The notes below the pieces were generated by a model. It was not told where the DNA came from, did not search any database, and was given only the letters and a program-made list of their open reading frames with translations. From Candidatus Omnitrophota bacterium (GTDB lineage Bacteria; Omnitrophota; Gorgyraeia; JABMRG01; JAFGKX01), in contig JAZDPX010000033.1 in the NCBI GenBank assembly GCA_043797125.1, positions 34,527 to 98,526 on the forward strand: a stretch of DNA of 64,000 nt, in the 5' to 3' direction. Of the stretch, positions 11,107-62,985 are shown one piece after another (the stretch's first letter is position 1; each line of letters starts with the position of its first letter). Position numbers and translations under genes: made by a program.

Positions 11107-11829
11107 CTATTTTTGGCTGTTGTTTTTATCCGTTTTTTTCAGTATAAAAGCAAATTGATAGTCATATCTTAACGGAATAAACATCCATAATATTCTGCAT
11201 ACCATTCTCTTAGCAATGCCGGGAAAATTTGTTTGCTGAAACTTCATGTACCATTTATCGCGATGGATATCAATGATTTCAAAACCGTTTCTGATAAAGG
11301 CGCCCTTCCATTGTTCCAATGATAACAGATTCTCGTTTATATCCTGCTGCTCCGTGCCGTATTTGGCGAAAAGTTTCCAAAAAATAAAATTGGAATTAGG
11401 CACCATTATGCAAAACAGGGCGTTGTTTTTCGCGACCCGCTTCATTTCAAAAAGGCCCTTATCCATATCCAGAAAATGTTCCAAAGACCCCAGGCATGTA
11501 ACATAATCAAAGGTATTATCGCCGAACCTTATGTCTTCCGCCTCGCCGACAGAGATAACCGAATCAGGAGAAATGCCCTTTGCAAGCCTTACGGCCTCTT
11601 CGGAGATATCGATGCCAAAAGTCTCCAGCCCTCTTTTTGATGCCGCGCAAAGCAAAAGCCCTATGCCGCAGGCAACATCTAAAAGCCTTCTGCCTCTTTG
11701 CGACCCCAGATAATCCAAAAATACGGTATATGCTTCGTACGGCCTTTTGTTTCTTACTCCTTCGGAGGCATATTTTTTATTATACCAGCTTCTGACTTCT
11801 TGTCCGGTCGGCGGTTTACGCATTCTCAT
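11107..11829 (-). CDS. Class I SAM-dependent methyltransferase
   Basis: LLDVACGIGLL motif I; 240 aa. Confidence 0.65.
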   Translation of the reverse strand: MRMRKPPTGQEVRSWYNKKYASEGVRNKRPYEAYTVFLDYLGSQRGRRLLDVACGIGLLLCAASKRGLETFGIDISEEAVRLAKGISPDSVISVGEAEDIRFGDNTFDYVTCLGSLEHFLDMDKGLFEMKRVAKNNALFCIMVPNSNFIFWKLFAKYGTEQQDINENLLSLEQWKGAFIRNGFEIIDIHRDKWYMKFQQTNFPGIAKRMVCRILWMFIPLRYDYQFAFILKKTDKNNSQK

Positions 11830-12775
11830 CTCTTATTTTCGATCCGGCCTGGGCCTTAAACTCATTAAAAAACACAAAAGTGAATATTATGCCCAAAAAC
11901 AGCACAACCAGAATGCTTATGGCCCTATCCACTATTGAGGCCAATGCGCCGTTTATGGCGGTAAATCCCATAACAGCGGATGTAATGGTTATAGCTGCCT
12001 CTTTAAAACCTAGATTTGCCGGTGTAATACTCACGAAAACAAAAAGCGAAACTATATTTGCCATAATTAATATTGCGATAAAATCGGGCCGGATACCTAT
12101 GGCCTGGTATGCAAAAAATAACCTTCCGGACAATACAAGCATGGATAAAAGGTTTAGCCCTGATAATATCAGAAGCAGGCTTTTCTGTTTCCTGAAATAA
12201 TTAAGGCCCGAAAATATTTTATTCACAGCTGCGACTTTAAAGCTTTTCCCGGCAAACCATTTCCAGGAAATCATAAAACCGCCGATAAAAATTCCGACGG
12301 AAATAAAAAATAATAATATCTTAAAATTAAAAATACCAGCAAGAAAATACCTAAGACAAATTAGCGCTATGCCGAATACCGCGTTTACCAAAAAAGAAAA
12401 AAAATAAAACCCCATATAGGCGGATAAAAAACTCAAATAGGGAAAATCATATTTGTTTTTCATGTAAAATGCTCTGGCGGTAACTCCTGCCTTTGCAGGC
12501 AATATATAATTACCTATACTGGTGAGGCAGGATAACCCGAACCATTCCTTAAAAGTCAGCCTTACGCCAAAGGCATCTGTAAGTTTTTTTGCGGAAAAGG
12601 CATTGATAATAAGATACAAAAACGTCAAAAATGTTATTGTAATTATATATGACAAAGAAATATGCGAAAGTTTATATAGCTGTTCTTTTCTTGCCATAAT
12701 AAAAGAAACAAATGCCGCAAGTATCGCAAATAATACGAGATAAGAAACCAAATAGGCCTTGTTATTCCGGCGCAT
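11816..12775 (-). CDS. Polytopic membrane protein (flippase-like / LPG-synthase-TM-like, UPF0104)
   Basis: 319 aa with about 8 predicted TM helices and no soluble domain. Confidence 0.4.
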   Translation of the reverse strand: MRRNNKAYLVSYLVLFAILAAFVSFIMARKEQLYKLSHISLSYIITITFLTFLYLIINAFSAKKLTDAFGVRLTFKEWFGLSCLTSIGNYILPAKAGVTARAFYMKNKYDFPYLSFLSAYMGFYFFSFLVNAVFGIALICLRYFLAGIFNFKILLFFISVGIFIGGFMISWKWFAGKSFKVAAVNKIFSGLNYFRKQKSLLLILSGLNLLSMLVLSGRLFFAYQAIGIRPDFIAILIMANIVSLFVFVSITPANLGFKEAAITITSAVMGFTAINGALASIVDRAISILVVLFLGIIFTFVFFNEFKAQAGSKIRDENA

Positions 12776-14333
12776 ATATAGACCGCCTGATTGATATGAC
12801 GCTTATAACCAGAATAACTGCCAAAATTACCATTGCCGATATCACTGCAGATAAAAGCCCCGGGGAAACCGCAGGGACATTCACCCACCATACATCCCAA
12901 ATATCATAATTTTTCATAGACGCGATTACCGGCTTTACAAACCAATAATCTGGGTTATATTCAAAATTCAGAGCCGGATACCCGAATACCCTGCCAACGG
13001 CAGAGGTAAATAAATACCAGCTCCCTCTTATCGGGCTTAATTCGGGTATAAAGTTTATAAAATATTCCTGCAGGCTTAATCCTTCTTTGACAAAAAGCAG
13101 GTATCTGCTAAAACTTATAAACAGGCACGGCAGCTGGACTAAAAACCCCAATGCGGAAAACAGAATCAACATAAGCTTCCTGATAATCGCCCTTGATTGT
13201 TGTATAAATTCTGCTAAAAATATGCACATAAAAGGAATTGTGGGGTATAGATAGCGCGGCCCCCATGAGAATATTGAACCTCTGAGAAATATGTATGCGT
13301 AAAATAAAAAATTTATGATTATAAACGCGAGAATATATAGGGTAAACTTCTTATCTTGTTTTAGCAGGCCCCTTATCCCGAAAAATGCCAGTATCAAGGG
13401 GGCGTTGTAGTAAAAGTACCCTTTCCCCGCGCTCAGCAGATAATAAAACAACCCTTTAAAAAAATTAGGGCCGAATATCAACCCTTTTTGCGTAAATACG
13501 GTTTCTATGCCTGCGCCGGGGTCAACTGCATTGCTTCTTTTCATAAAATAAATAAATAGCGACAGAATAAAACAGCAAGAGACCGGAATAATAACGGCAA
13601 GCCAAAGCTTGACAGCGTGCCTGGCTGATTTAAAATCCGCGCCCTTGTATACTAAATAGAAAAAAATCAGAAAAAGGTATAAAAAGGAATTCATCTTTAT
13701 GAGCAGGCTGTATCCTATCAATGCGCTGCTTAATAACGCGTAACGCGCAAGGGATTCTGATTCATATTTATGCAAAAATAAAAAAGCCGACAGCACAAAA
13801 AGTGTAACCGCAGGCTCTGAAAACCCCGAACGCGTATAGACAAGACTCATTGTGCAGAAGCTATAGCATAAAACCGTTATAACCTTGGTTTTTTTATCAT
13901 AACCAAGCCTTCCTAAAAGCATAAAAAGAATTAACGCTGTTAGCGCGCCGATTGCTGGATTTGCCAGCGAAACACAAAACTGGGTTATGTAATCATGGCC
14001 AATGCCGGAAAACGCCTTGGATATAATATGGCCCAACGCGTAAAGCGGCACAAGCAAAATAGGCATCCCGATGCCATAGGATGAATACCTGTTGCCTGCT
14101 GCGCCGGGTTTTTTACCTGCCTCATATTTCATCTCCTTTATGCCAAAAGGCCTGTCATAAATACTAATATCGCCGTCTAAAACTATGCTTTCGGCTGTAA
14201 GATAATTCTCCAACCCGTCGCCGCCATAATGTCCGTTTGAGAAAAACACAAAAAATGAGAAGAGAAAAATAAAAATATGCATATGCAGTAAAAATTTTCT
14301 TTTTCTTTGCAAAGAAAACAATCCCGGCATCAT
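12762..14333 (-). CDS. GT-C fold membrane glycosyltransferase (ArnT/PMT-like)
   Basis: Large polytopic protein. The ORF-track start is 14498. The start is refined to M56 (ATG 14333..14331), which overlaps the TGA of the upstream CDS as TGATG. Confidence 0.5.
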   Translation of the reverse strand: MMPGLFSLQRKRKFLLHMHIFIFLFSFFVFFSNGHYGGDGLENYLTAESIVLDGDISIYDRPFGIKEMKYEAGKKPGAAGNRYSSYGIGMPILLVPLYALGHIISKAFSGIGHDYITQFCVSLANPAIGALTALILFMLLGRLGYDKKTKVITVLCYSFCTMSLVYTRSGFSEPAVTLFVLSAFLFLHKYESESLARYALLSSALIGYSLLIKMNSFLYLFLIFFYLVYKGADFKSARHAVKLWLAVIIPVSCCFILSLFIYFMKRSNAVDPGAGIETVFTQKGLIFGPNFFKGLFYYLLSAGKGYFYYNAPLILAFFGIRGLLKQDKKFTLYILAFIIINFLFYAYIFLRGSIFSWGPRYLYPTIPFMCIFLAEFIQQSRAIIRKLMLILFSALGFLVQLPCLFISFSRYLLFVKEGLSLQEYFINFIPELSPIRGSWYLFTSAVGRVFGYPALNFEYNPDYWFVKPVIASMKNYDIWDVWWVNVPAVSPGLLSAVISAMVILAVILVISVISIRRSIYAPE

Positions 14334-46923: not shown

Positions 46924-46972
46924 GTTTACCCCTTTACAATTAAAGTCCTTTTTACCTATTAATTAGATAGTA

Positions 46973-46998
46973 TTATACATATAGAGCTAAATGTCAAT
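46973..46998 (-). promoter_or_regulatory. Candidate sigma70-like promoter (TTGACA-N14-TGTATAAT) in the only >100-bp intergenic gap
   Basis: Minus-strand TTGACA at 46998..46993 and TATAAT at 46978..46973 with an adjacent TG. It lies about 50 nt upstream of the NeuB-like ATG at 46923. The spacer is short at 14 nt. Confidence 0.3.
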
Positions 46999-47017
46999 AG
47001 AAATCTTTGCTTATCAG

Positions 47018-47037
47018 TAGTAGTCATTAGTAGTCAT
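47018..47037. repeat. Perfect 10-bp direct repeat x2 (tagtagtcat) immediately upstream of the candidate -35
   Basis: tagtagtcat tagtagtcat read directly. The 10-bp period is one helical turn. Confidence 0.6.
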
Positions 47038-47087
47038 TGGTGGCTGGCAAAAGATGAAATTTGCTGTTGTTTTGGTAAATTTAAAGG

Positions 47088-58476: not shown

Positions 58477-59187
58477 TTAATCCCTATGCAGTTTTTTAAT
58501 CTTTATCAGATCAATAAACATGCTGACTGAACTTGCAACTGCCCTTACCTTGCTTTGAGGCGAATTATTCCACACAACCCCCGCCTCTTTAACCTTATAA
58601 CCTTTTAACTTTGCCAGGTACAATAACTCAACATCAAAACAAAAACTGTCTATTTTAAGAAGCAATGCGAGCCTTCTGGCAGCGTCCCCTTTGAAGAGTT
58701 TAAAACCGCACTGCGTATCATTAAATTCCTCAAGAAGAAATAATTTAACAAAGGCGTTAAATACCTTTCCCATCCTTTCCCTATACCATGGCTGATGAAT
58801 CCTAACGTCTGAGTCTATAGCGCTGCGCGAACCGATAACAATATCATAGCCTTCGGACATGACGCCAAGGAGCTTGTCTAATTCTTCAATAGGCGTAGAC
58901 AGGTCTGCGTCGGTAAACAAGACATACTCCCCTTTTGTTGCTAAAATCCCTCTTTTGACAGAAAAGCCCTTGCCTACATTTATCCAGTTTTTTATTACGC
59001 AAAGATTCCCTTCCGTAAATAACGAACTTCCCTGAGCTTCAACAACGGTTTTGTCCGCGCTGCCATCATCCACAACAATGACTTCATAATCAAAGCCTTT
59101 GGCGCGCAAAAAATCGTATATATTGGATAGGGTCGCCTTTATGCGCTTTTCTTCGTTATATGCGGGTATTACGATTGATAAGTACAT
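58477..59187 (-). CDS. GT2 polyprenyl-phosphate sugar synthase (ArnC/DPM1-like)
   Basis: LSIVIPAYNEEKRI...VIVVDDGSADKT. It is paired with the downstream GT-C, as in arnC-arnT. Confidence 0.75.
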   Translation of the reverse strand: MYLSIVIPAYNEEKRIKATLSNIYDFLRAKGFDYEVIVVDDGSADKTVVEAQGSSLFTEGNLCVIKNWINVGKGFSVKRGILATKGEYVLFTDADLSTPIEELDKLLGVMSEGYDIVIGSRSAIDSDVRIHQPWYRERMGKVFNAFVKLFLLEEFNDTQCGFKLFKGDAARRLALLLKIDSFCFDVELLYLAKLKGYKVKEAGVVWNNSPQSKVRAVASSVSMFIDLIKIKKLHRD

Positions 59188-59188
59188 G

Positions 59189-59216
59189 GTTCATTGTTCA
59201 TTGTTCATGGTTCGTT
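59189..59216. repeat. Heptanucleotide tandem repeat x4 (gttcatt/gttcatg/gttcgtt) spanning the stop and start of adjacent GT genes
   Basis: gttcatt gttcatt gttcatg gttcgtt read directly. The upstream gene's TGA (59200..59198) lies inside the repeat. Each unit carries an ATG on the coding strand. Confidence 0.6.
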
Positions 59217-60154
59217 GATTGTAACTGCTTGCGTCTTTTATTCCTGTAAAGATACAGCGCCTTTATGAAACCTCTTATTAGCCCCCAGCCGTAAGAAAAG
59301 TGTATGACAAAAAATATCAAAGGAAAGACAATCGCCCCTGCCGGGCTTTTATTTTTTGCGGATTCTACGATACCGCCGAAAATTATAAAGGCCAGATAGC
59401 ACAGCGCCGGGACAGCAGCAGGCTTATACAATACGAGTAACATCGGCAAAAAACTCATGTATATGGAAAAAAGCGCCACCAAAATAAATTCGAGCTCTAT
59501 GTGCGGCTTTTCCTGCACAATTATTTCTTTTTGCGGCCTTGTTATGCCGTATTTAAATATCTGCCTTGCAAATGACCATAAGTCTTTTCTTCGTTTATGG
59601 TATATGACCACATCTGAAGATTTCGCTATCTTAAAACCAGCTGCCTGCGCCCTTGAAAAAAACTCTCTTTCCTCTGCGGGGTATAAAAAGGGGTGAAAAT
59701 ATCCTATTTTCTCAAAAACCTCCCTTTTTACAAAACAATTGGCGCTTGTAATATCAAATTCCGTGGCATTAAAATTTATATCGCCCCTTTTATAACGATT
59801 GCTGATCTTAAAAGTCCCGAAGCCTGATGCCAATGCTATGCCTGAAAGCTTTGCAAAAAATTCATCTGTCTTTGGCGTAAGCTGCGGCCCGCCAAGAATA
59901 TCATAACCATGATAGGCCTTAAAAAAATTATCCGCCTTATCCAAGAGGTCTTTTTCAAAAATTGCCTCGTCGTCCAGCAGCAGCATGATTTCGCCTTTTG
60001 ACCTCTTAATGGCCTTGTTTCTGTTCTTTGACGGATTTTTGCCTTCCTCTATTATAACCTCAAAGGCGCCTTTAGGATAATCAAGCCTGGCAATGGAATC
60101 TTTCACCTCAACTTTTCTTCCCGGGCCTACCGGTATTATCAATGAGTATCTCAT
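59198..60154 (-). CDS. GT2-like glycosyltransferase with C-terminal TM helices
   Basis: YSLIIPVG N-terminal GT-A start and LLLDDE. Two or three C-terminal TM segments. Confidence 0.5.
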   Translation of the reverse strand: MRYSLIIPVGPGRKVEVKDSIARLDYPKGAFEVIIEEGKNPSKNRNKAIKRSKGEIMLLLDDEAIFEKDLLDKADNFFKAYHGYDILGGPQLTPKTDEFFAKLSGIALASGFGTFKISNRYKRGDINFNATEFDITSANCFVKREVFEKIGYFHPFLYPAEEREFFSRAQAAGFKIAKSSDVVIYHKRRKDLWSFARQIFKYGITRPQKEIIVQEKPHIELEFILVALFSIYMSFLPMLLVLYKPAAVPALCYLAFIIFGGIVESAKNKSPAGAIVFPLIFFVIHFSYGWGLIRGFIKALYLYRNKRRKQLQSTNHEQ

Positions 60155-61542
60155 TTGAATTTTATCTTATATAGGGCGATCCTATCAGAGACGCTTATCG
60201 GGGCGTAGTCAAAATTATACGTCAAAGATGTTTCTTCAAGAAACCGAGGCTGCATTACGCAATAGGCATCGTGAATGCCTTCGTTAACAATTCTATCGTA
60301 CGATTGCCTGCTGAGAATTTCGGCAAAATCGCAGTAGAATGTCTCGCAATAACTTATGCCGTATAAATACACCTTCTCGCCTTTTAAGTGCAGCTTTCTT
60401 GCGTAACCCGAGACCTCTTTAACCTCAGGATTGAAATCCAGTTTGAATGCCCACGATATCGGAACCTGAATAACCATGCCAATTAATATAACGGCTAAAA
60501 GAATCCTAAAGGCCATGCCTTTAAAAAATCTTTCCACAAACAGGGCTGATGAAAGCGCAAGCGCCGGGTAAATAGGCATTATATACCAATGCAGTTTTGT
60601 TTTTACTGCCGTATACAATACGTATGTTGCCGTTATCCAGCAGCATAATAAAAGAGCTTTTTTATCTTTGTGCCTTATTGCCTGCCATAAAACATAAAAT
60701 ACGGATAAATACATAAGGATAGACCATGGTTTATTTTTATTAAAAATTGCCTTCTGGTAAAAATTCAGGCCTCCTGTATGCTCCTGAATACCGTGCGCCG
60801 CCCTTTGAAATATATGGAGCCCGAAATATTCTTTTATAGCCTGCGGCCCGATATAAATATACTGAAGCAAATGCCAGCCGAATATAATCGCAAAACCAAC
60901 TAATATCCCTGCGATAAAATGCTTTTTGAATAAATAACGCCAATTGCCGGAAACGATGCAATACAGAAAAATTATTATAGGCCCAAGAAATGCGGCAAAG
61001 CCCTTCATGAGATACGCCAGGCCCAATACAGCGCCGGAATAAAACAGGTATTTATGATTATTCTCGCCCTTCCAGAAAAAATAAATCATTAATAAGATAA
61101 AAAAGGCCATAGCGACATCCATGGTGCCTGCCTTGCTAAAATGCTCAAAATGAGGCGTTGCCAAAAGTAAAAGCGGCGCGATAATGGCGGATCTGGCGGC
61201 GCCGAACATCTTAATAAAAATATATACAAGCATTATTGCGGCAATTCCGAAAAGCCCGGAAGTCAAGCGCGTAGAAAACTCGGTTCTGCCAAATATCTTA
61301 TAAAAACATGTTGTCGCCCACATGTACAGCGGCGGTTTATCAAACCAGGGGTCATTAATATAATGAAGCTTGACCCAGTTACCGCCATTGAGCATGTTCG
61401 TGGATATATTTGCGTATATTGCCTCATCCCACGTGGATAAACTGCCTGTGCCTATATTCCCAAGGATATATATCGAGGCAAATATTAACAATAACCAGAA
61501 CACTTTATCTTTAAAAATAGATTCTTTCATTATATCGACCAT
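60151..61542 (-). CDS. GT-C fold membrane glycosyltransferase (GT83/GT39, ArnT/PMT-like)
   Basis: GTGSLSTWDEAIYAN loop-1 DE motif. Polytopic. Confidence 0.6.
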   Translation of the reverse strand: MVDIMKESIFKDKVFWLLLIFASIYILGNIGTGSLSTWDEAIYANISTNMLNGGNWVKLHYINDPWFDKPPLYMWATTCFYKIFGRTEFSTRLTSGLFGIAAIMLVYIFIKMFGAARSAIIAPLLLLATPHFEHFSKAGTMDVAMAFFILLMIYFFWKGENNHKYLFYSGAVLGLAYLMKGFAAFLGPIIIFLYCIVSGNWRYLFKKHFIAGILVGFAIIFGWHLLQYIYIGPQAIKEYFGLHIFQRAAHGIQEHTGGLNFYQKAIFNKNKPWSILMYLSVFYVLWQAIRHKDKKALLLCCWITATYVLYTAVKTKLHWYIMPIYPALALSSALFVERFFKGMAFRILLAVILIGMVIQVPISWAFKLDFNPEVKEVSGYARKLHLKGEKVYLYGISYCETFYCDFAEILSRQSYDRIVNEGIHDAYCVMQPRFLEETSLTYNFDYAPISVSDRIALYKIKFK

Positions 61543-61568
61543 CGACCATCGACTATCGACTATCGACT
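61534..61568. repeat. Heptanucleotide tandem repeat x5 (atcgacc x2, atcgact x3) containing the upstream stop codon and the downstream start codon
   Basis: Read directly. The TAG of 61553..61780 (61555..61553) and the ATG of 60151..61542 both lie inside the repeat. A second ATG sits 7 nt upstream in the +1 frame. Confidence 0.65.
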
Positions 61569-61780
61569 ATTTTAATGCTTCTATGTTTATTCAATATCCG
61601 CTGTATGTAACCTTTTTTTTCAAGCGCAAGAAGTTTGTCAACCGCAGATTTATATGAAACTATCCCGCAAGACTCTTGAATCTCGCGTATATAAGGAGCC
61701 TTGTTGTTCTGCGCCATATAGCGCTTGATAAAATCATACACGGCCTTTTGTTTTTTTGTAAGCTTTGCCAATTCCATCAT
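61553..61780 (-). CDS. LexA-type winged-helix DNA-binding domain protein (no peptidase domain), 75 aa
   Basis: LTKKQKAVYDFIKRYMAQNNKAPYIREIQESCGIVSYKSAVDKLLALEKKGYI aligns position by position with the LexA N-terminal DNA-binding domain. Confidence 0.55.
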   Translation of the reverse strand: MMELAKLTKKQKAVYDFIKRYMAQNNKAPYIREIQESCGIVSYKSAVDKLLALEKKGYIQRILNKHRSIKIVDSR

Positions 61781-62898: not shown

Positions 62899-62912
62899 AA
62901 AAACTCCTAACT

Positions 62913-62985
62913 GGTTAATTGGTTAATTGGTTAATTGGTTAATTGGTTAATTAACCACTCACCACTCACCACTCACCAATTAACC
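62913..62985. repeat. Composite tandem repeat filling the intergenic space: (ggttaatt)x5 - aacc - (actcacc)x3 - aattaacc (inverted copy)
   Basis: Read directly. ggttaattaacc is palindromic. The terminal aattaacc contains the TAA of the upstream epimerase gene. Confidence 0.65.

Follow-up and report, generated by a model that had tools for sequence, protein, structure and literature searches.

The Omnitrophota are an uncultured phylum said to include very small, host-dependent cells. The DNA described here, referred to as the window, is a 64-kb stretch taken from one Omnitrophota metagenome-assembled genome (MAG) deposited at NCBI, where it belongs to a contig of 174,146 bp (locus tag V2A72_06190, NCBI proteins MFH0732490-95). 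The large open reading frames (ORFs) of the window are all located on the minus strand and constitute a one-directional glycan-synthesis cluster of 64 kb. This analysis deals with a heptanucleotide tandem repeat, called array B, which occupies the junction (B) between the gene of a small LexA-like protein and that of a GT-C glycosyltransferase, and with the comparable arrays present at two other junctions (A and C) of the same cluster. The features at junction B are the following, in window coordinates.

61553..61780, minus strand: gene of the LexA-like protein, 75 aa (Pfam LexA_DNA_bind, 5.9e-16, residues 6-67; NCBI MFH0732493.1, hypothetical protein).
61534..61568, minus strand: array B, (AGTCGAT)3(GGTCGAT)2, which reads AGTCGAT AGTCGAT AGTCGAT GGTCGAT GGTCGAT from 61568 to 61534, at the LexA-like/GT-C junction.
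61511..61549, minus strand: ORF of 12 codons opened by an out-of-frame ATG of the array (61549), which begins 3 nt past the LexA-like stop and overlaps the GT-C start; a possible decoy.
61540..61542, minus strand: in-frame ATG of the array, which opens the longest GT-C ORF (463 aa) and would prepend MVDI to the conserved N-terminus.
60151..61530, minus strand: gene of the GT-C glycosyltransferase of family GT39 (PMT_2), 459 aa, with a start (ATG 61530) supported by homology and annotated at NCBI (entry P0001, 100% identity).

Array B is real and far above chance expectation. It is 35 nt long and is described by Tandem Repeats Finder (TRF) as a repeat of period 7 with 5.4 copies, 93% matches and a score of 62, its longest perfect runs being three units of AGTCGAT and two of GGTCGAT. 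The word GTCGATNGTCGAT occurs four times within it against 0.09 expected from shuffles, and is found neither in the rest of the window nor in the 98 loci gathered for comparison. The array contains the TAG stop of the LexA-like ORF as well as two ATGs, with TAG present in all three frames (three copies). It lies in forward orientation and its 3' edge falls 3 nt short of ATG 61530, with no Shine-Dalgarno (SD)-like 4-mer at that place.

The LexA-like ORF ends in AAA ATA GTC GAT AGT CGA TAG (...KIVDSR), its last three codons (DSR) and the stop (61555..61553) being encoded by array B; the homologues of relatives terminate in ...KI[VIA]. LexA_DNA_bind is the only Pfam match of this protein, and no peptidase domain was detected in it by Pfam. 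A function of array B as a LexA/SOS operator was considered and rejected, given that its repeats are direct, that it lies within an operon and received no promoter call, and that the 75-aa protein has a DNA-binding domain only, with no S24 peptidase. Proteins of 71-75 aa with nothing other than the LexA-type winged helix are encoded directly upstream of GT-C or other sugar-modifying genes in the window and in L001-L036, L090, L091, L096 and L097 (L numbers denote the comparison loci), and in Omnitrophota glycan clusters this small gene frequently overlaps the preceding epimerase gene.

The glycosyltransferase ORF matches PMT_2 in Pfam (6.4e-24), and its real start is most likely ATG 61530, outside array B, an assignment made because of the N-terminus conserved among its homologues and of the NCBI annotation. 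The homologues share the pattern M-x-x-[ST]-[IL]-[FL]-K-D-K; those of relatives begin with MQETLLKDK, MEKSIFKDK, MKNSILNDK, MNSIFKDR or MKDKLFW, and the counterpart in the window, MKESIFKDK, begins at ATG 61530. The NCBI entry ('MAG: glycosyltransferase family 39 protein [Candidatus Omnitrophota bacterium]') is the window's own protein in its form of 459 aa, and the protein collection searched holds no entry for a form of 463 aa. ATG 61542, which is in frame, represents a possible alternative start.

A previous interpretation made from the letters alone (the sequence-only reading) had placed (AGTCGAT)3(GGTCGAT)2 at 61534-61568, which agrees with the minus strand and with TRF, and had assigned to these units the KIVDSR end and the TAG of the small regulator, in agreement with the ORF translation (DSR and TAG within the array). 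The extra ATG that it noticed 7 nt upstream in another frame is indeed there, at 61549. Its location of the GT-C start in the array holds only for the longest ORF (463 aa), which opens at ATG 61542; the homologues and NCBI speak for 61530 (459 aa).

Array B is accompanied by three further arrays, two of them within a single spacer, which are listed below together with the genes at junction C.

59198..60154, minus strand: gene of a GT2 glycosyltransferase of 318 aa, with its C-terminal tail (..STNHEQ) and TGA stop inside array C.
59185..59217, minus strand: array C, GAACCAT GAACAAT GAACAAT GAACCAT(G), 4.7 units of GAACMAT with a TRF score of 45, at the junction of the GT2 genes of 318 and 236 aa.
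58477..59187, minus strand: gene of a GT2 of 236 aa, named dolichyl-phosphate beta-glucosyltransferase at NCBI, with its start codon in the last unit of array C.
62954..62978, minus strand: heptamer array of junction A, (GGTGAGT) x3.6, in the spacer between two epimerase/dehydratase genes.
62908..62952, minus strand: octamer array of junction A, TTAACCAA x5.6, in the same epimerase/dehydratase spacer.

Array C has TGA stops in all three frames and four ATGs, the last of which (59187) serves the 236-aa GT2 as its conserved start; this start is marked by MYLSIVIPAYNE and no SD-like 4-mer precedes it. The spacer of junction A (62899-62979, minus strand; 81 nt) consists almost wholly of (GGTGAGT)3.6 and (TTAACCAA)5.6. 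In total the window contains four arrays at three junctions, all inside its last 5 kb, and about 19 further spacers of at least 8 nt contain no repeat. Each unit is confined to its own array within the 64 kb, on which ground a dispersed motif (of the TAACTGA or operator type) was rejected. An origin from foreign DNA was likewise rejected, since GC is flat (0.38-0.46) across the window. The absence of a Shine-Dalgarno sequence was also discarded as a distinctive trait of the arrays, since an SD-like 4-mer occurs upstream of only 18 of the 55 genes in the window, about two thirds of them being without one. Elsewhere, a spacer of 164 nt (46924-47087, minus strand) probably serves the glycan cluster as an internal promoter: it contains a 10-mer tandem, ACTACTAATG x2.5, and a sigma-70 promoter close to the consensus (TTGACA, 17 nt, TATAAT).

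The distribution of such arrays was examined by a scan under strict criteria (four or more copies, self-match of 85% or higher, no low-complexity sequence) on loci that were fetched via glycan genes; this biased sample comprises loci and not whole genomes, and its counts do not extend to how densely simple sequence repeats (SSRs) occur genome-wide. Across 324 kb of related Omnitrophota-type loci the scan found seven heptamer arrays, one octamer and one nonamer array (period 7 in 7/9). No array of any period was detected in 216 kb of distant loci, and none of period 7 and above in dinucleotide-type shuffles of 488 kb. All strict arrays are located in spacers, at the 5' ends of genes or over a few codons at a gene's beginning or end; none is deep in a coding region. 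No report of SSRs in Omnitrophota was found in the literature searched.

These figures bear on the explanation that the arrays are due to chance or to faulty assembly. Since the source is a metagenome-assembled genome, in which the copy number of repeats can be mis-assembled, the explanation deserves mention; however, the shuffles are devoid of arrays, array B is shorter (35 nt) than a sequencing read, and similar arrays occur in independent assemblies (L090 and L009, both from NCBI), with a degenerate period-7 signal in L091 (Logan), all of which makes it extremely improbable. The sequence-only reading had noted a companion junction at 59185 with a different repeat and had held that two such junctions spoke against coincidence. 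Array C is real and contains both the stop of one GT2 gene and the start of the next, and the four arrays at three junctions in 5 kb, the predominance of heptamers in related loci and their absence from shuffles bear out this judgement.

Besides the window and L090, L009 (Candidatus Omnitrophota MAG Dive96_bin10.280; 11248-13101) has four heptamer arrays (AACTATG, GTCACGA and GCGATGT twice), which are found at the 5' ends of genes in an operon for a type IV pilus or a pseudopilin system resembling the type II secretion system (T2SS), two of these genes having the N_methyl motif at the array. In the prepilin genes the array spans the start codon and extends into the short leader peptide that precedes KG|FT(L/I)xE, and the frames stay open. 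L001 (2421-2561) and L003 (2994-3027 and 3439-3474) contain 9-10-nt arrays of the GGTTACA type at another orthologous junction, which follows a carbamoyltransferase gene. In L001 about seven copies of GGTTACATAA are succeeded by about seven inverted copies, which form a long imperfect hairpin; in L003 AGGTTACAA x3.8 stops 1 nt before the next ATG. The core GGTTAC(A) is common to both, in genomes whose GT-C is only 45% identical to that of the window.

No sequence of the same species was found in genome, metagenome or assembly collections, in which the window proteins form one-member clusters and exact look-ups of them gave no contig; the best matches outside the source reach 62-66% for GT-C and 82% for the LexA-like protein (in a metagenome). 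The gene order epimerase 339, epimerase 373, LexA-like, GT-C, GT2 (~316 aa), GT2 (~236 aa), PMT, YfhO is kept in L090, L091, L001, L010 and others. In the relatives, the genes at these junctions overlap by 4 nt or are separated by short spacers free of repeats, so the arrays of the window are insertions or expansions. At junction A all relatives examined show a 4-nt overlap (ATGA) of the two epimerase genes, and the 81-nt spacer of the window is therefore an insertion. The states found at the other two junctions are listed next.

Junction B, L010: non-repeat spacer of 18 nt; the LexA-like protein is the one most similar to that of the window (81%).
Junction B, L012/13/16 and L098: 2 nt.
Junction B, L001/L097: perfect hairpin of 18 bp.
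Junction B, L014: large hairpin with flanking GCGTTAT repeats.
Junction B, L096: plain spacer.
Junction B, L090: degenerate heptads GTGTAAA GCGTTTA GCGTGTA ATGTATA.
Junction B, L091: degenerate heptads TATAGAG CGTTTAG TGCTTAG TGTATAG.
Junction C, L090: perfect AACCTGA in four or more copies, running into the ATG.
Junction C, L091: AAAACTT AAAACTA AAAACTT, 3.3 copies.
Junction C, L001: weak doublet of 7-8 nt only.

The heptads of junction B give a period-7 autocorrelation of 0.46 in L090 and 0.51 in L091 (shuffle p ≤ 0.0005), and at junction C both loci likewise show a significant signal of period 7. Thus a period-7 character at B and C is common to three genomes (the window, L090 and L091), among which the units differ and GT-C is 63-70% identical. 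An array is absent from junction B in at least 10 relatives, and L001 has none at B or C although it is the closest relative of L090 (80% GT-C identity). This gain or loss between close relatives and the differing units argue for rapid turnover: the arrays turn over via gain, loss and re-homogenisation and are not a conserved sequence element, and their turnover in unit sequence, copy number and presence shows evolutionary instability, not programmed switching. The comparison with related genomes, which had been proposed as a check on the junctions, has a divided outcome, as the period of 7 recurs at B and C in L090 and L091 whereas most orthologous junctions, that of L010 among them, are free of arrays. 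L092-L095, GT-C relatives at a greater distance, show overlapping junctions and no LexA-like gene, and were of no use to this comparison. In L090 (2744-2830) the called GT-C (474 aa) begins at an ATG in the degenerate heptads, some 15 codons ahead of the conserved start (MQNFILK). The hairpin of L001/L097 was considered as a mobile element and rejected, the two loci being simply about 79% identical in DNA throughout.

The consequences of changes in unit number were simulated in silico. At junction B the addition of a unit of either the A or the G type, or the removal of one of the G type, leaves both proteins unchanged (three of the four cases); all that varies is the distance from stop to start (15, 22 or 29 nt) and how many ATGs lie upstream. 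If one AGTCGAT unit is lost, the sole TAG in frame goes with it, and the LexA-like ORF continues into GT-C as an in-frame fusion of 540 aa. At junction C both ORFs stay intact whenever at least one middle unit remains, each frame having a TGA and the last unit holding the real ATG. Changes of one unit in either direction at B and C thus produced no frameshift of GT-C or of the 236-aa GT2, so that the arrays are not classical on/off switches acting by frameshift; at most they could grade translational coupling. The sequence-only reading had seen a design around stop and start codons, a claim that these data do not sustain: the GT-C start is likely outside the array, the units are site-specific, most junctions are free of arrays, the tract is short and interrupted (3+2) and, in the simulations, a change of one unit shifts the frame of neither gene, apart from the one deletion that fuses the two ORFs.

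The simulations also bear on the interpretation of the arrays as contingency or 'rheostat' elements, in which slippage would alter unit number and, by way of coupling, decoy ATGs or ORF fusion, the expression of the glycosyltransferase (or, in L009, of pilin) from cell to cell. SSRs beside glycosyltransferase and pilin genes are the classic setting of phase variation, and heptamer tracts near gene starts, with proposed roles in phase variation, are known from Haemophilus, where a gene for a TonB-dependent receptor is preceded, at 13 bp, by (AACAACC)1-7 and hmw has (TGAAAGA)13-38 upstream (PMC2651432). The arrays resemble these loci in placing 7-nt units near the 5' end of genes for surface structures, in the context of glycosyltransferases or pilins, as do the four arrays of L009 at, or reaching into, the leader-peptide 5' ends of pseudopilin-type genes. 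The recurrence of repeat character at orthologous junctions with other copy numbers and units, and the fusion of 540 aa, speak in the same direction. On the other hand, documented switches such as those of Haemophilus (PMC2651432) possess many more perfect units and are located in a promoter or an ORF, where they alter expression; here there are 2-4 perfect units and the ORFs remain intact. The tracts are short and interrupted (3+2 at B, 1+2+1 at C) in comparison with the 6-38 units of documented heptamer switches, and no long, pure, hypermutable tract is present, the longest perfect runs being 3 and 2 units. GT-C and the 236-aa GT2 cannot be shifted, as their conserved starts coincide with the 3' edge of the array or are located past it; a switch of expression by unit change was not found in silico (no frameshift, no promoter at the arrays), and most relatives do without an array. 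An active switch of this kind is consequently unlikely. The repeat state may nevertheless be under selection, given the persistence at the junctions and the association with surface genes in two Omnitrophota genomes independent of each other, both of which a rheostat or contingency role would fit. The proposal that arrays at the 5' edges of surface-structure genes (glycan glycosyltransferases, pseudopilin leaders in L009) have been selected as mutable rheostats of translation coupling appears quite doubtful.

RNA folding was predicted for the three junctions of the window, with the results listed here.

Junction B: minimum free energy (MFE) -14.1 kcal/mol, z = -2.6, with 2/200 shuffles folding as well; AUG 61530 is paired, and GUCGAU is self-complementary with G·U ends.
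Junction C: unstructured, z = +1.5 (L090 likewise, z = +1.2).
Junction A: hairpin formed by both arrays, MFE -32.8 kcal/mol, z = -5.6, with the AGGAG Shine-Dalgarno sequence unpaired.

Hairpins are also predicted at junction B of L001/L097 (-31.8 kcal/mol, z = -7.5) and L014 (-39 kcal/mol, z = -3.8). Rfam gave no match in the whole window, and a scan of 58-64 kb for promoters and terminators made no call at the arrays, its counts being at the level of shuffles. From these predictions it may be proposed that the regulator gene and GT-C are separated at junction B by a stem-loop which acts as a partial terminator, a processing site or a stabiliser, the GUCGAU units merely building it. The fold of the window, which pairs AUG 61530, and the hairpins of L001/L097 and L014 are consistent with this proposal, as is the LexA-like/GT-C spacer of L090, in which a GC-rich palindrome (GCCTGCCGGCAGGC) is followed by a T-rich run with the appearance of a terminator. 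Other relatives (L091, L010, L096, L002, L003, L012/13/16 and L098), however, show no significant structure at this junction or have no spacer, array C is unstructured in the window and in L090, so that structure is not the common denominator of the arrays, and the hairpin of the window is weak, has no U-tail and received no terminator call. The proposal is hence very unlikely. A shared RNA structure behind the arrays was rejected for the same reasons: a weak hairpin at B, an unstructured C, a strong one at A, and hairpins at B in some relatives only.

Direct repeats of the heptamer TAACTGA have been described in marine Beggiatoaceae, Cyanobacteria and Bacteroidetes (MacGregor, 2015; PMC4679880) and offer a positional parallel for a further explanation, in which the arrays are binding sites for a protein, either the LexA-like repressor on DNA or a translation factor on RNA as proposed for the Beggiatoaceae. 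The TAACTGA repeats occur in 2-6 forward copies which end a few nt from a start codon and in some cases overlap the end of the upstream ORF; as in the arrays described here, they have stops in the unit, usually no Shine-Dalgarno sequence, and 'split' sets with variant units (PMC4679880). Arrays B and C are forward, lie near a start without Shine-Dalgarno sequence and contain TAG or TGA in all frames, and array B adjoins the gene of a DNA-binding protein. TAACTGA, however, is a single sequence used at roughly 170 places in each genome, and such recurrence suggests a shared binding factor, whereas in the 64-kb window each array has its own unit and no heptamer is repeated at many sites; AGTCGAT and GGTCGAT are also absent from the 98 loci. 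There is no motif common to AGTCGAT, GAACAAT, GGTGAGT, TTAACCAA, AACCTGA and AAAACTT, and the lack of a shared unit makes a common binding factor unlikely. No unit recurs elsewhere in the manner of a regulon, the LexA-like gene is kept in relatives without array, and about two thirds of the window genes have no Shine-Dalgarno sequence in any case. Binding sites of this type are therefore highly improbable.

Taken together, array B is probably a long SSR of the heptanucleotide class, made by replication slippage in the small intercistronic spacer of co-transcribed genes. In many bacteria no class of long SSRs is more over-represented than the heptamers, which lie mainly between genes and are ascribed to polymerase slippage (Mrazek, Guo and Shah, 2007, summarised in PMC4679880 and PMC4692102). 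With the long SSRs of that description (units of 5-11 nt, as far as those two papers report them), array B shares head-to-tail 7-nt units above what composition and chance predict, a non-coding, intergenic site, and a lineage in which period 7 prevails (seven of the nine strict arrays of the glycan-locus sample); it differs from them by the very short intra-operon spacer and by the overlap with stop and start codons. Its copy number and sequence vary at the same site among relatives, much as the intergenic GGGAATC repeats of Xanthomonas vary in length and sequence among related genomes. The short tandemly repeated repetitive (STRR) sequences of cyanobacteria and the G-rich heptamers of Nostoc and Xanthomonas are further intergenic tandem heptamers, some of them in operons (GGGGATT between pecE and pecF), and their inverted array pairs can form hairpins, as at junction A of the window; they are genome-wide families with few defined units, some forming G-quadruplexes, whereas the units of the window are not G-rich and are site-specific (PMC4692102).

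The origin that we infer would be the duplication by slippage of a short unit, mostly of 7 nt, in the few non-coding bases between co-transcribed genes. Because a unit of 7 nt shifts the reading frame, such arrays would survive only in intercistronic spacers, and as these are only a few bases long the array would absorb the upstream stop and abut the downstream start. Three successive 7-nt units present any codon in all frames, so the pattern of three TAGs and two ATGs would need no design. On a polycistronic mRNA, array B may have modest effects, which would include the addition of DSR to the LexA-like protein, a stop-to-start gap widened to 22 nt, two decoy ATGs before the real GT-C start (one of them in frame, the other not), and a weak hairpin. 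The combined effects likely loosen or tune the translational coupling of the GT-C gene, which has no Shine-Dalgarno sequence.

Some observations weigh against an origin by slippage with no further cause. In three genomes with a GT-C identity of just 63-70%, period-7 arrays have persisted at two shared junctions; pure neutrality does not predict such persistence across deep divergence, and the repeat state could be under selection. The clustering of all four arrays in 5 kb, with about 19 other spacers of at least 8 nt devoid of them, is something that uniform slippage fails to explain. The census is limited to loci sampled through glycan genes, and slippage as the mechanism of origin is deduced rather than observed.

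The arrays have practical consequences for annotation. Gene callers are drawn into them, as illustrated by the 463-aa ORF that competes with the real GT-C of 459 aa and by the GT-C of L090, called 15 codons too long, and a 7-nt difference in array B, by assembly or by slippage, would yield the surprising annotation of a fusion between regulator and transferase. Within the glycan-locus sample, Omnitrophota join the scattered list of lineages rich in heptanucleotide SSRs, and their tightly packed operons make such repeats land exactly on the stop/start junctions. If sequencing reads varied in unit number, these junctions would become candidates for the stochastic tuning of surface glycans and pili. 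Should the rheostat interpretation be true, the arrays would be the first contingency-type loci in Omnitrophota, and the turnover of their units would be the footprint of long-term selection for mutability.

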